64,000 nt of DNA, from the NCBI RefSeq assembly GCF_030013205.1, contig NZ_CP122648.1. One strand, given 5' to 3'. The translations under genes and the position numbers were made by a program. The stretch comes from Escherichia coli. Its GTDB lineage: Bacteria > Pseudomonadota > Gammaproteobacteria > Enterobacterales > Enterobacteriaceae. The notes under the pieces were generated by a model. The model was not told where the DNA came from. It saw only the letters and a list, made by a program, of their open reading frames with translations, and did not search any database. This document shows, piece after piece, positions 3,360 through 19,243 of this stretch; within the stretch, counting starts at the first letter, position 1; each line of letters begins with the position of its first letter.

Positions 3360-4727
3360 TTAACGCATCAGCAGATAGATGCTTTCATTGCCGCGTACAA
3401 TTTGCAGGGCGATGATGGCCGGTTTTGCCGCCAGCACTTTACGCATTTCAGCAATCGAGTTCACCCGATCGCGGTTGACGCCAATGATCACATCGTCTTT
3501 TTGCAAGCCAGCCTGAGCAGCTGGGCTTCCTTTGACAACCTCATCGATCTTAATACCTTTGCCGCCATCTTTTAGCTGACCATCGCTCAACGTTGCACCT
3601 TCAAGCGCTGGCGTGATCATTTCAGCGCTGGCCGACGAAGAGGTGCTGGTATCGAGCGTCACTTCTACTTCCAGTGGTTTGCCGTTACGCAGCAGGCCAA
3701 GCTTCACTTTCGTGCCCGGCTCGGTGGTTGCGATACGAGAGCGCAACTCAGCAAAGCTATTCAGCGGTTTGCCGTTGAGGCTGGTAATAATATCGCCCGC
3801 TTTGACGCCCGCTTTTGCCGAGCCAGAACCTGGCAACACTTCGCTGACAAACGCGCCACGCTGCACGTCAAGGTTGAAGGCTTTGGCGATATCGGCACTC
3901 ATCTCGGTGCCTTTGATGCCTAACAAACCGCGTTTGATTTCACCAAAGTCGATAAGCTGCTGCGCCAGTGTTCGCGCCATATTACTGGGGATGGCAAATC
4001 CAATCCCGACGCTCCCGCCGCCAGGCGCAAGGATTGCAGTGTTGATGCCAATTAACTCACCGTTAAGGTTTAACAGTGCACCGCCGGAGTTACCGCGGTT
4101 AATGGAAGCATCTGTCTGGATAAAGTTTTCCAGACCTTCAAGATTCAACCCACTGCGGCCTAATGCGGAAACAATGCCAGAGGTGGCGGTTTGCCCAAGG
4201 CCAAATGGGTTACCGACCGCCACGGCAAAATCACCGACGCGCAATTTATCGGAGTCGGCAATAGCGATTTGCGTTAATTTGCTCGGGTTTTGAATTTGCA
4301 ACAGGGCGATATCGCTCTGGTCATCGCTACCAATCAGTTTTGCATCAAACTCGCGCCCATCATTGAGCTGAATACTGATTTTCTGTGCCTGATTAATCAC
4401 ATGGTTGTTAGTCAGCACATAGCCTTTACTGGCGTTGATGATGACACCGGAGCCTAAACCTTCGAAGGGTTGTGCCGGTTGATCCGGTAAATCATCACCA
4501 AAAAACTTTTTGAATTCTTCCGGGATTTTCTGTCCCTGACTGGCCGTTCCTTCCACCCGTACGCTCACCACTGCCGGAAGCACTTTTTCCAGCATTGGGG
4601 CCAGACTGGGGAGGGGGGCCTGATCGGCAACCTGGCCTGGAATCGACGCGACGGCCTGAAATGACGCCGAGAGAGTTAACCCGACACTTAACGCTAATGC
4701 ACTCAACAGCTGGGTTTGTTTTTTCAT
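3360..4727 (-). CDS. degQ: periplasmic serine endoprotease DegQ
   Basis: 455 aa from MKKQTQLLSALALSVGL (track ORF has upstream extension); protease plus two PDZ domains. Confidence 0.95.
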   Translation of the reverse strand: MKKQTQLLSALALSVGLTLSASFQAVASIPGQVADQAPLPSLAPMLEKVLPAVVSVRVEGTASQGQKIPEEFKKFFGDDLPDQPAQPFEGLGSGVIINASKGYVLTNNHVINQAQKISIQLNDGREFDAKLIGSDDQSDIALLQIQNPSKLTQIAIADSDKLRVGDFAVAVGNPFGLGQTATSGIVSALGRSGLNLEGLENFIQTDASINRGNSGGALLNLNGELIGINTAILAPGGGSVGIGFAIPSNMARTLAQQLIDFGEIKRGLLGIKGTEMSADIAKAFNLDVQRGAFVSEVLPGSGSAKAGVKAGDIITSLNGKPLNSFAELRSRIATTEPGTKVKLGLLRNGKPLEVEVTLDTSTSSSASAEMITPALEGATLSDGQLKDGGKGIKIDEVVKGSPAAQAGLQKDDVIIGVNRDRVNSIAEMRKVLAAKPAIIALQIVRGNESIYLLMR

Positions 4728-4880
4728 TATTCCTGCTCTCGTACCTGAATGATAAGAAAAGAGATTCAAAACAGTTTGATGTTATTGAATTTTCAGACGG
4801 CTAACAATGAGACACCAGATTAAATGATAGTCGGGGAGGGAGAGAAGAGGAGGGCGCAATGGCTGCGCCCGAAAAATAAA

Positions 4881-5472: not shown

Positions 5473-6600
5473 ATGCAAAGCGTTACCCCAACATCGCAAT
5501 ACCTGAAGGCGCTCAATGAAGGCAGCCATCAACCCGACGACGTTCAAAAAGAGGCCGTCAGCCGCCTGGAAATTATTTATCAGGAACTCATCAATAGCAC
5601 GCCTCCAGCCCCCAGGACGAGTGGGCTAATGGCGCGGGTCGGTAAGCTGTGGGGTAAACGCGAAGACACAAAGCATACGCCAGTGCGTGGCTTATATATG
5701 TGGGGCGGTGTAGGACGCGGGAAAACCTGGCTGATGGACCTTTTCTATCAAAGCCTGCCGGGAGAGCGGAAACAGCGTCTGCACTTTCACCGTTTTATGC
5801 TGCGGGTGCACGAAGAGCTGACCGAATTACAAGGCCAAAGCGATCCGCTGGAAATTATTGCCGATCGCTTTAAAGCAGAAACTGACGTGCTCTGTTTTGA
5901 CGAATTTTTTGTTTCTGATATTACCGATGCCATGCTACTTGGCGGTCTGATGAAAGCCCTGTTCGCCCGCGGTATTACCCTGGTAGCGACGTCAAATATT
6001 CCGCCGGACGAACTTTATCGAAATGGCCTACAACGTGCGCGTTTTTTGCCTGCAATCGATGCCATTAAACAGCATTGTGATGTAATGAACGTGGACGCTG
6101 GTGTTGATTATCGACTGCGTACACTCACTCAGGCGCATCTGTGGCTTTCGCCCCTCAACGATGAAATCCGGGCGCAAATGGATAAACTATGGTTGGCGCT
6201 GGCGGGGGCGAAACGAGAAAATTCACCGACGTTAGAAATCAACCATCGGCCATTGGCGACAATGGGCGTCGAGAACCAGACGCTGGCGGTCTCTTTTACT
6301 ACGCTGTGCGTCGACGCCCGCAGTCAGCATGACTATATTGCGCTCTCACGCCTCTTTCATACGGTCATGTTGTTTGATGTACCAGTTATGACTCGGTTGA
6401 TGGAGAGTGAAGCGCGGCGCTTTATTGCGCTGGTGGATGAGTTTTACGAGCGCCATGTCAAATTAGTGGTGAGTGCAGAAGTGCCGCTATATGACATTTA
6501 TCAGGGCGAGCGGCTGGAATTTGAGTTCCTGCGTTGCCTGTCACGTCTGCAAGAGATGCAAAGCGAAGAGTATCTGAAGCGCGAGCATTTAGCGGGTTAA
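5473..6600 (+). CDS. zapE: AFG1-like ATPase ZapE
   Basis: 375 aa with Walker A GGVGRGKT; matches E. coli ZapE (YhcM). Confidence 0.93.
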   Translation: MQSVTPTSQYLKALNEGSHQPDDVQKEAVSRLEIIYQELINSTPPAPRTSGLMARVGKLWGKREDTKHTPVRGLYMWGGVGRGKTWLMDLFYQSLPGERKQRLHFHRFMLRVHEELTELQGQSDPLEIIADRFKAETDVLCFDEFFVSDITDAMLLGGLMKALFARGITLVATSNIPPDELYRNGLQRARFLPAIDAIKQHCDVMNVDAGVDYRLRTLTQAHLWLSPLNDEIRAQMDKLWLALAGAKRENSPTLEINHRPLATMGVENQTLAVSFTTLCVDARSQHDYIALSRLFHTVMLFDVPVMTRLMESEARRFIALVDEFYERHVKLVVSAEVPLYDIYQGERLEFEFLRCLSRLQEMQSEEYLKREHLAG

Positions 6601-15124: not shown

Positions 15125-16457
<1,333 letters not shown>

Positions 16458-16516
16458 AACTTAGTTCGTTTTAAAGATTCTGCAGACACTGTCTGCAGAA
16501 TTCGAAACCGCTGAAA

Positions 16517-17629
16517 TTAACGGCGTCTATAGCCTTCCTCTAGCACCGCCTGTGTTCGAACGAGTTCATCCGCGAGTCGTTTTTCATCAGGTAGTTGCAT
16601 CTTATATTCGCTCGCCAGAACGGTGTTAGGCAAACCAGCCAGTGCATAATACGCTTCGCCGGCTCCTTTCTCTGCACAGAGAACCAGACCGATGGGCGGA
16701 TTTTCATCCGGTAGTGTCCAGTGCTCTTTGGCGTAGTTGAGATACATATTCATCTGTCCGGCATCGCTATAGCTGAATTTGCCCACTTTTAGATCGACGA
16801 TTAGCAGGCAGCGTAAACGGCGGTGGAAAAACAGCAGATCGACACGAAACCAGTTGTCATCAATGCGTAACCTTCGCTGTCGACCAACAAAGGCAAAATC
16901 ATCCCCAAGTTCCAGCATGAAATCCATCAGGTGGTTGATCAGCGCCTCCTCAAAATCGGATTCTGAGTATTCATCTTTCAATTCCAGAAATTCGAGCACA
17001 AAGGGATCGCGTATCGCCTGCTGCGGAAGAATATGCGTCTCGGTAGGAGCGTGTTGTTGCAGCATGGCTGATTTGTCATGTGACAGTAGTGTCCGCTCAT
17101 AAAACTGGGTCGCAATTTGTCGTTCGAGCTGACGAGCAGACCAGCCACAGCGGAGTGTCTCTTTCTCATAAAAGCTGCGAGCATCAGCTTTTTTAACAGA
17201 AAGCAAACGGACGTAAGTGGACCAGGGCAGGGGGAAGGATTTGGCGAGTTGCGCTAAATGGCAAGATTCTCCAGACACAGTCTGGAGAATTGTGGGGGTG
17301 AATTGTGCAGACAGTGTCTGCACAATTTCAATTCTTTGAAAACAAATATAAAAATTCTTAAACTGCCATAAATTCCTGGTGGAAAATCCACGCTTATACC
17401 TTAGACTTAAATCCTTTGATAGTCGCTTGATTAGCTGCGCACCATACGCAGCCCTGGCCTCGCCACCTTGTTCAAATTCGACAATTCGTCGGCCAATTTC
17501 CCAGTACGTCGCGGTCATTAACGCGTTAACGCTACGTACCGTTTCCGTTCGGGCGCTATCGACCAGATGAATAATGCCGTCGTGGATTTGCTGGTAGCCT
17601 GCTGTGGTTCCTTCTGAGAGCGATTCCAT
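16517..17629 (-). CDS. yhcG: DUF1016 / YhcG-family putative PD-(D/E)XK nuclease
   Basis: 370 aa; C-terminal RVDLLFFH...LLIVDLKVGK resembles a PD-(D/E)XK core; contains an internal 12-residue tandem repeat encoded by palindromic DNA (see findings). Confidence 0.8.
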   Translation of the reverse strand: MESLSEGTTAGYQQIHDGIIHLVDSARTETVRSVNALMTATYWEIGRRIVEFEQGGEARAAYGAQLIKRLSKDLSLRYKRGFSTRNLWQFKNFYICFQRIEIVQTLSAQFTPTILQTVSGESCHLAQLAKSFPLPWSTYVRLLSVKKADARSFYEKETLRCGWSARQLERQIATQFYERTLLSHDKSAMLQQHAPTETHILPQQAIRDPFVLEFLELKDEYSESDFEEALINHLMDFMLELGDDFAFVGRQRRLRIDDNWFRVDLLFFHRRLRCLLIVDLKVGKFSYSDAGQMNMYLNYAKEHWTLPDENPPIGLVLCAEKGAGEAYYALAGLPNTVLASEYKMQLPDEKRLADELVRTQAVLEEGYRRR

Positions 17630-17812
17630 TATCTGTCCCTTAATATGGCGCAGTGTTGAATAATGGAATCAGCTATACGCCGGGCATCTGCCGGTAACAA
17701 TCCAGATGTGCGTATTACATTGGTTTTCTTCAGATTATGCGAGGCGCTTTCCAGAACGAAAGGAGAATTTCAGCGCCGACTCTTTTCTGAGGAGGCGGCG
17801 CTGGGACAGAGC

Positions 17813-19243
<1,431 letters not shown>

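Follow-up and report, generated by a model that had tools for sequence, protein, structure and literature searches.

Palindromes translated in frame in yhcG: a conserved nucleic-acid element of the YhcG/DUF1016 gene family

The yhcG gene of Escherichia coli belongs to the YhcG/DUF1016 family of predicted nucleases, a very large family annotated without a function. In a 64-kb stretch of E. coli DNA (the window), read here at the nanQ/yhcG/gltD locus, two long palindromes lie inside the yhcG reading frame and a third follows its stop codon; the question raised by this locus is whether such symmetry belongs to the protein, to the genome at large or to the gene, and what might read it. A first-pass annotation had proposed an ancestral coding copy, its in-frame duplication and a third copy outside the gene, and had considered a dispersed repeat, an interpretation that was upheld in part. 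We show that the conserved object is the nucleic-acid palindrome, an ancient selected element of the YhcG/DUF1016 gene family which dictates the peptide I-x-Q/E-T-x-S-x-K/E/Q, that its units are gained, lost and exchanged, and that copies also occur outside the open reading frame (ORF).

A palindrome conserved at one site of a gene family

The three related palindromes of the window (P1, P2 and P3; Table 1) were all found in the sequence, P2 and P3 at the positions first annotated and P1 one base further left, in a gap between the stop codons of nanQ (yhcH) and yhcG that measures 59 bp, not 60. P2 and P3 start exactly 36 bp apart, as had been claimed, and both are read in the yhcG frame: P3, the first unit of the gene, codes for EIVQTLSAQF (residues ~101-110) and occupies the position of the single unit of Salmonella and Citrobacter, and P2 codes for TILQTVSGES (ILQTVSGE at residues ~113-121). 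P1, the predicted third copy, begins 15 nt beyond the yhcG stop codon and is still in frame (...RRR*FQRFRILQTVSAES), such that it would read ILQTVSAE; in one E. coli protein (P0003, 391 aa) the stop is read through and P1 is translated. With its flank, P1 forms a 40-nt copy of the P3 region (78% identical); it represents a copy of the family element outside the ORF.

The 12-base core CAGACANTGTCTG, with at most one mismatch, occurred three times in the 64 kb against 0.10 expected, a count reached in 0 of 100 shuffles. A covariance model built from homologues, applied to the window at E up to 10, matched only P1, P2 and P3 (E 5e-10 to 1e-8 on the better strand, values that are rough owing to a quick calibration). 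Each palindrome folds on either strand into an 11-12-bp stem with a 3-nt loop, and the RNA stems are stable well beyond shuffled sequences; P1 folded at -15.6 to -16.9 kcal/mol (z -4 to -6), and the P2 plus P3 pair reached z of about -6.5 to -7.8. A scan against Rfam 15 returned only three chance-level snoRNA matches (E 2.9-4.4), none of them on a palindrome.

A degenerate-peptide scan with one genome per species yielded 80 YhcG homologues (50-66% identity, best matches to E. coli YhcG), and more distant DUF1016 members were sampled seven times. The taxa of the 80 homologues comprised Beta-, Gamma- and Deltaproteobacteria, Acidobacteria, Cyanobacteria, Verrucomicrobia, Ignavibacteria, Nitrospirae, Actinobacteria, Flavobacteriales, Elusimicrobia and an archaeal Methanoperedens metagenome-assembled genome. 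Between the conserved motifs N[LIV]..MR.FY and LPWSHY, the interval tested for palindromes, 69 of the 73 analysable loci carried one with at least 11 of 12 pairs (40 at 12/12, 29 at 11/12), with one to five units per homologue at the same in-frame position. Control intervals of the same length in the same ORFs gave a mean of 7.8 pairs and reached 11 in 1 of 274 cases; about 0.02 per locus would be expected by chance. Palindromes of this quality clustered at ORF offsets 300-480, and the covariance model matched the corresponding position in the listed homologue loci, including six missed by the anchor search. Homologues of about 40% identity carried other cores: GATTCGAGACGCgctGCGTCTCGAATC (IRDALRLES), ATTGTGCACCCAcTGGGCGCACAAT (IVHPLGAQ), ATTCCCTACACAgTGTGTAGAGAAT (IPYTVCRE) and ATTCTTCCGACAgTGTCGGAAGAAT (ILPTVSEE).

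DUF1016 proteins do possess the IVQTLSA-like motif that the first-pass annotation named, but it is the DNA palindrome that is conserved, with compensatory changes in its arms, and not the peptide. When codons were resampled synonymously, keeping the peptide and each gene's own codon usage, the best pairing fell from 11.5 to 7.95 of 12; the loss of the palindromes under this treatment indicates that the constraint acts on the nucleic acid and that the IxQTxSxK/E peptide is a by-product. Codon choice within the units differed sharply from that elsewhere in the same genes: ATT for isoleucine, 95% versus 29%; AAA for lysine, 100% versus 43%; ACA for threonine, 69% versus 17%; and TCT for serine, 56% versus 14%.

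The consensus of the element, ATT-NNN-CAGACA-N-TGTCTG-NNN-AAT, describes an 11-12-bp stem and 3-nt loop with a fixed base (ATT/AAT), a fixed apex (ACA-S-TGT) and a covarying middle. Paired cells made up 85% of the alignment versus 71% in shuffles, and the covariation score was 0.408 versus 0.146 in shuffles (0 of 500 reached the observed value) and at most 0.128 with slid partners, although each locus entered the alignment with its best unit and covariation can be mimicked by templated mutation; the positional test is independent of unit choice. Double-sided changes were present in 13 of 15 pairs, with 22-40 at each of the four middle pairs and at most 5 of 76 units unpaired there, and the stem base (73-75 of 76), the apical C:G pair (74 of 76) and the central C or G (126 of 133) were nearly invariant. 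Since the innermost pair was Watson-Crick in 54% of units, the loop is effectively 3 nt. Compensated stems included CAGAC/GTCTG, GAGAC/GTCTC, GAATC/GATTC and TACAC/GTGTA, among others, as well as the classes ..TCCGAGACA/TGTCTCGGA.. (ISETxSRK), ..TCCGAATCA/TGATTCGGA.. (ISESxIRK), ..CTCTCGACA/TGTCGAGAG.. and ..TCCGCGACA/TGTCGCGGA... Covariation above both shuffled and slid controls, at a homologous position, is the mark of a conserved structured nucleic-acid element. The units of one gene have different arms, each self-complementary, which argues for intrastrand pairing (hairpin or cruciform) or for a symmetry-generating process, rather than for a plain duplex site bound by a dimer.

The protein follows the pairing. 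Residues covaried as predicted from it (QT with S[A/G] in 68 of 78, ET with SR in 20 of 21, ES with IR in 7 of 9), and the residue before Q/E set the two residues after S (for example V with AQ, F with GK, P with AE). This is a clear case of a protein sequence set by a nucleic-acid constraint, in which residue pairs obey Watson-Crick rules, and it bears on how 'conserved motifs' and low-confidence loops are read. The palindromes of the window encode YhcG residues ~101-122; in the AlphaFold model (mean pLDDT 81.8), residues 101-120 have a pLDDT of about 50 and are flanked by confident helices, such that the palindrome-encoded peptide is modelled as a low-confidence loop of the N-terminal domain.

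Two further observations concern this site. Pairs of DUF1016 paralogues in Paraburkholderia aspalathi (L030/L074, on one contig) and Caballeronia sp. INDeC2 (L042/L073) have the cores CCAGAC versus CCGAATC; cognate protein-hairpin pairs could explain paralogue-specific cores, and so could plain descent. Many cluster representatives of the family (P0124, P0127, P0129, P0138, P0195, P0197 and others) start at about query residues 116-142, right after the linker; breakage of metagenome contigs at the palindromes, which would leave spurious gene fragments in assemblies, is the likely cause.

Units vary in number, and copies lie outside the reading frame

The proposed in-frame 12-codon units do vary between alleles. 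One unit is present in Salmonella, Citrobacter and 349-aa E. coli alleles, two in the window, and three in K-12 and 382-aa alleles; in Salmonella the gene order is gltD-yhcG-codBA and the single unit, ATTCCGCAGACAcTGTCTGCGGAAT, is perfect. K-12 YhcG (375 aa) has three different intragenic palindromes, with arms TGGCAGAC/GTCTGCCA, CTGCAGAC/GTCTGCGG and CGCCAGACA/TGTCTGGTG, plus the same P1. Because K-12 YhcG differs in this way from the 370-aa protein of the window, the objection that both coding copies are simply native sequence shared with K-12 falls away. E. coli yhcG alleles are 90-95% identical overall in most genomes; between the window and K-12 the gene is about 88-100% identical per 40-base block, mostly 95-100%, outside a hypervariable patch around the palindromes (Table 1). 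Both versions of the patch (NLWQF/IK.FY and NLRQMR.FY) are also found in other genera, which suggests imported mosaic segments or an old polymorphism.

Table 1. Features of the nanQ/yhcG/gltD locus, in window coordinates
Feature	Coordinates	Strand	Description
nanQ (yhcH)	15993..16457	+	convergent with yhcG
P1	16477..16501		perfect 12+1+12, ATTCTGCAGACAcTGTCTGCAGAAT; arms 16477-16488 / 16490-16501; nanQ/yhcG intergenic gap
yhcG CDS	16517..17629	-	370 aa; DUF1016_N + YhcG_C PD-(D/E)XK nuclease domain
Hypervariable patch	17180..17400		about 220 bp around the palindromes; window versus K-12 40-85% identical (16-34/40 per block), with indels
Degenerate unit	17239..17259		ATTTGGCG-AGTTG-CGCTAAAT, 7/8 pairs; aligns with the intact third K-12 palindrome GATTTGGCAGACagcGTCTGCCAAATC
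P2	17266..17290		11+3+11, ATTCTCCAGACacaGTCTGGAGAAT; arms 17266-17276 / 17280-17290; inside yhcG
P3	17301..17327		13+1+13, AATTGTGCAGACAgTGTCTGCACAATT; arms 17301-17313 / 17315-17327; inside yhcG
gltD	17813..19231	-	directly adjoins yhcG

A dispersed E. coli repeat, as the first-pass annotation had considered, was not found. A 40-nt P1 query matched a median of 3 and a maximum of 6 places per E. coli genome, and its 4 places in K-12 equal the number of palindromes read at the K-12 yhcG locus; with so few places per genome, the element is not dispersed. About 1,660 E. coli records gave only the ~83%-identical match that is seen in strains without yhcG. In the two such strains inspected, BEN2908 and E5, a 67-bp nanQ-gltD gap holds one palindrome, AAATTCGCCAGACAcTGTCTGGCGAATTT, at the position of P1 and with the same flank on the nanQ side. 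In E. coli 1919D3 (L005, 2540-3035), yhcG breaks off precisely at the right edge of its third palindrome, where it is fused to foreign DNA: in place of the C-terminal part and P1 there are about 430 bp with a 101-aa ORF annotated 'transposase' and another terminator-like hairpin, and the same type of truncation recurred in matches H18-H20 and H52-H54.

At the loci of homologues, copies outside the ORF were located about 100 nt upstream (L011, directly after the stop of the upstream gene, and L085) or just 3' (P1 of E. coli), and copies just 5' or 3' would fall within a transcript covering the gene. Perfect palindromes also persisted in decayed DUF1016 relics (L077, L127 and L075, the last with an array of four or five). 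Exact-pattern scans, which specified 18 bases and detect intact copies only, and hence give no measure of orphan decay rate, returned 31 matches in viral contigs, of which 18 fell within DUF1016 ORFs, and at least 128 in metagenome contigs; among the metagenome matches listed, 94 lay within or at a DUF1016 ORF, and 30 came from loci lacking a DUF1016 gene. Most orphans keep two or three of three complementary pairs at the unspecified middle positions and are therefore true palindromes. Those inspected were mostly intergenic, several of them 1-70 nt past stop codons. Three orphans of metagenome contigs (L132 3658, L137 1176 and L161 5440) have at least 40 nt of conserved flank on each side and may be part of a larger repeated element; L132 and L137 appear to hold the same element in opposite orientation, near IS3-family-like transposase ORFs.

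What may read the palindromes

The reading that we favour, at a probability of roughly 0.4, is that YhcG recognises the hairpin or cruciform at its loop and stem base and so limits itself independently of any promoter; between the two forms, we lean slightly toward DNA rather than mRNA. The element would act folded; YhcG, its sole constant partner, would contact the loop and the stem base, and would hold down its expression or activity by binding to the gene or transcript that encodes it. DUF1016 genes are embedded in type III restriction-modification (RM), MmeI-like and BREX operons, often without a promoter, and are solitary in E. coli. Of all kinds of control element, only an intragenic site accompanies such a gene wherever it goes, and a potentially toxic, horizontally mobile candidate nuclease would thereby gain a built-in control site. 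Changes in copy number, the hypervariable patch, truncations and orphans would then be side effects of hairpin-prone repeats.

Three features tip the balance slightly toward DNA, in the form of a cruciform: the centre base, the lack of a sense-strand G.U signature, and the DNA-nuclease fold. The centre base on the coding strand was C in 69 units, G in 57, T in 5 and A in 2; equal use of C and G is predicted by strand-symmetric (duplex or cruciform) recognition or by frequent inversion, not by a strand-specific RNA loop. Coding-strand mismatches outside the loop were A.C in 33 cases versus G.T in 11 in the first set, and 16 versus 8 in an independent, non-ascertained set (49 versus 19 in total), a spectrum that weakly points to the opposite of a sense-mRNA G.U signature and may be confounded by coding or mutational bias. 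By fold, the nearest relatives of the nuclease domain are NucS/EndoMS, Bax1, Can2/Card1 and NucC, and the domain has earlier been related to DUF91 (NucS), YraN and archaeal Holliday-junction resolvases (PMC1189080); a sequence search for YhcG relatives with a solved structure returned none. Among known systems, YhcG's C-terminal domain is closest to the resolvase-like PD-(D/E)XK nucleases (Hjc, YraN, NucS/EndoMS). By analogy, NucS- and resolvase-like enzymes being structure-specific DNA enzymes and an extruded palindrome a four-way junction, such a structure could be what YhcG recognises. We know of no resolvase with palindromes resembling its own substrate in its gene.

Several points weigh against this proposal. 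Binding or cutting of the hairpins by YhcG is putative, as is any effect of the hairpins on expression. At 25-27 bp, the palindromes are short for a cruciform to extrude spontaneously, and the strand bias of the mismatches is unexpected for a cruciform and would require a mutational origin. Some family members are only weakly palindromic (L089, among the seven distant members). About a quarter of the listed metagenome matches had no DUF1016 gene within several kb, so the element can exist without such a gene in cis, and the explanation that all orphans are DUF1016 relics is not generally supported, a relic being present in the flanks of only 7 of 40. Lastly, symmetric changes within a species (below) imply that templated mutation contributes to the symmetry, which makes covariation a weaker proof of selection.

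The spacing of P2 and P3 recalls the type III toxin-antitoxin system ToxI/ToxN, in which tandem units of about 36 nt lie in the transcript of a toxic nuclease. ToxI, however, is non-coding, upstream of its toxin and folded into pseudoknots, and ToxN is an endoribonuclease of another fold, whereas the yhcG units are simple hairpins inside an ORF, the protein has a PD-(D/E)XK fold of DNA-nuclease type, and no RNA signature was seen. It is conceivable, although we rate it as doubtful, that an in-ORF array read by its own resolvase-like protein, which would serve either to regulate or neutralise it from within and without a promoter or as a recombination site that targets itself, and which travels across phyla, represents a new class of cis-element, 'coding hairpin repeats', with a loop peptide set by what the DNA or RNA structure requires. 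For a family whose genes occur in restriction-modification, BREX and other defence loci and pass freely from one phylum to another, the palindromes are a first concrete handle, a conserved and easily mutated structure within the gene, and they render the regulation, the substrate (hairpin, cruciform or junction DNA) and the mobility of the family directly testable.

Folded strands or cruciforms could alternatively be recombination sites for the insertion, excision or exchange of defence cassettes, in the manner of attC or REP/RAYT and with YhcG starting the event, which we consider unlikely. Such a site would fit the single palindrome kept at the P1 position between nanQ and gltD in E. coli without yhcG, the allele cut exactly at a palindrome edge, the hypervariable patch around the units, the copying of an internal P3 segment by P1 and its flank, and the fold of the nuclease domain. 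Orphans in defence operons fit as well: one lies in the order hsdM-GxxExxY-palindrome-hsdS, one just after hsdR and one between DUF1156 and DUF499 anti-phage genes, and others appear beside AbiE genes, RhuM and a large serine recombinase (labels read from ORF translations only). In L127, 179-nt direct repeats (4686-4864 and 6008-6186; 94% identical), each with two family-type palindromes and a weak DUF1016 relic, flank an apparent toxin-antitoxin pair, and in L126 the same module is the neighbour of an intact DUF1016 gene. Against this, a fixed position and frame one third into the ORF across the family would not be expected of a mobility site; no recombinase is consistently linked, and all of these rearrangements could reflect passive hairpin fragility. 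Module swapping at the linker was rejected, as the N- and C-terminal halves of YhcG evolve together (pairwise identity r = 0.86). A cassette flanked by palindromes was likewise unsupported, since the gltD side of yhcG gave no covariance-model match and only a weak GGAGAATTT half-site by eye. Integron attC sites share with the element the primacy of structure over sequence, recognition of a folded strand and, for P1, a place at the 3' end of a mobile gene, but attC sites are imperfect palindromes of 57-141 bp that have R''/L''-L'/R' boxes, extrahelical bases and a GTTRRRY core, require IntI and never lie in an ORF; the yhcG palindromes are perfect, 25-27 bp long and have no GTTRRRY.

An old in-frame insertion into a tolerant loop, functionless and with its symmetry perpetuated by template switching and gene conversion, is in our view improbable, despite clear signs of the mutational process. 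The differences between near-identical E. coli alleles are symmetric double substitutions and c/g flips of the centre, in coding units and P1 alike, which is the signature of templated, inversion-type mutation. P1 has the arms CTGCAG/CTGCAG in both K-12 and the window versus CTCCAG/CTGGAG in L096, the centre base reads c in K-12 and g in O157, and the unit at the P2 position is TCTCC/GGAGA in the window versus TCGCC/GGCGA in L097, with identical flanks. These are the changes of quasi-palindrome hotspots on the Ripley model (E. coli thyA). Changes in copy number by whole units, the low-confidence loop and the perfect palindromes of decayed relics agree with this explanation. A hotspot is nevertheless a mutational mechanism, which explains symmetry and not a fixed position or conserved bases; the stem base, apex and central C/G stay fixed while the middle pairs drift, and persistence at one site, in dozens of phyla and down to protein identities of about 40%, would go unexplained. 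To our knowledge, moreover, other bacterial palindromes of such size (operators) are not symmetric at uncontacted positions.

More improbable again is an element read by the host in transcription or mRNA, such as a terminator, attenuator, stabilising hairpin or ribosome pause, with P1 and the solo copies as bidirectional terminators. The hairpins are stable on both strands, several orphans lie shortly past stop codons, and both P1 and the B2-type solo copy sit between convergent operons; the latter is flanked by A/T runs (TTTTATAAATT...AATTTATTGTT), so that a terminator role is possible there. P3 followed by the T-rich tail CAATTCTTTG (17300-17338, plus strand) was the sole terminator-like palindrome, antisense to yhcG and in the direction of the nan operon. 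An intrinsic terminator is a G+C-rich hairpin directly followed by a U-run, however, and neither P1 nor P2 was flagged on either strand in a terminator scan; P1 lacks a U-run, in agreement with the first-pass annotation, and terminator-like sites in the region were not in excess over shuffles. Termination or pausing also needs no conserved loop or stem-base sequence, the mismatches show no sense-strand preference for G.U, and the gene has different surroundings in every lineage, whereas the place of the element within the ORF does not change.

A small dispersed palindromic element of REP/BIME, MITE or Rickettsia RPE type that landed in or beside yhcG is very improbable and, for E. coli, largely refuted. 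In-frame ORF copies as in RPEs, one copy beyond the gene, and orphans in other genomes, some with extended conserved flanks, would agree with it, but the three sites in 64 kb, the few places per E. coli genome and the shared in-gene position across phyla indicate inheritance with the gene rather than repeated insertion. REP/REPIN-RAYT systems likewise tie short hairpin palindromes, conserved in structure and a few bases, to one nuclease gene which they adjoin; REPs, however, are extragenic, number tens to hundreds of copies, bear a 5' GTAG and depend on an HUH (Y1) transposase, whereas the yhcG units are mostly in the ORF and in frame, number 1-4 in E. coli at one locus, have no GTAG at the hairpin foot and adjoin the gene of a PD-(D/E)XK nuclease. 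Rickettsia RPEs resemble them in being palindromic DNA translated in frame as a tolerated loop or surface peptide, a by-product, but RPEs are 100-150 bp long and occur in many unrelated genes of one genus, whereas the present element is 25-27 bp, occupies one homologous position in a single gene family across phyla, with covariation kept, and in E. coli is confined to yhcG.

A repeat IxQTxSxK/E selected in the protein, with codons palindromic by accident, is refuted as the sole cause, wide as the motif is among DUF1016 proteins, by the synonymous resampling, the extreme codon usage, the unlike peptides (RDALRLE, VHPLGAQ, PYTVCRE, SESxIRK) that equally good palindromes encode at the same site, the equally perfect non-coding copies and the low pLDDT of the region.

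The YhcG protein and its neighbourhood

YhcG of the window matched both domains of the YhcG/DUF1016 nuclease family (Pfam PF17761 and PF06250), DUF1016_N at residues 19-179 (E 7.6e-43) and YhcG_C at residues 203-355 (E 5.2e-56); at E up to 1e-3, the family takes in 24,055 cluster representatives. A search of NCBIfam gave no name for the protein. A full-length match to the PADLOC family PDC-S02 (PDLC04807, E 2.3e-133, residues 9-365) makes yhcG a candidate defence gene by sequence similarity. The palindromes are described neither in Rfam nor in the literature searched on DUF1016, yhcG and PDC-S02, which covers the predicted nuclease, its RM, BREX and integrative and conjugative element neighbourhoods, and an antisense non-coding RNA at the K-12 yhcG 5' untranslated region (UTR). 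This stationary-phase RNA, G0-10703, is divergent and overlaps the yhcG 5' UTR by 128 bp, with no overlap with the palindromes (PMC7967276).

In the window, nanE, nanK and nanQ are convergent with yhcG, and 17630-17812 separates yhcG from gltD. In K-12 (L003, 3346-5470) the corresponding neighbours of yhcG are yhcF, a yhcE pseudogene and an IS5. We take the full K-12 interval to be gltF-yhcADEF. Homology between the window and K-12 stops about 20-60 bp upstream of the yhcG start codon.

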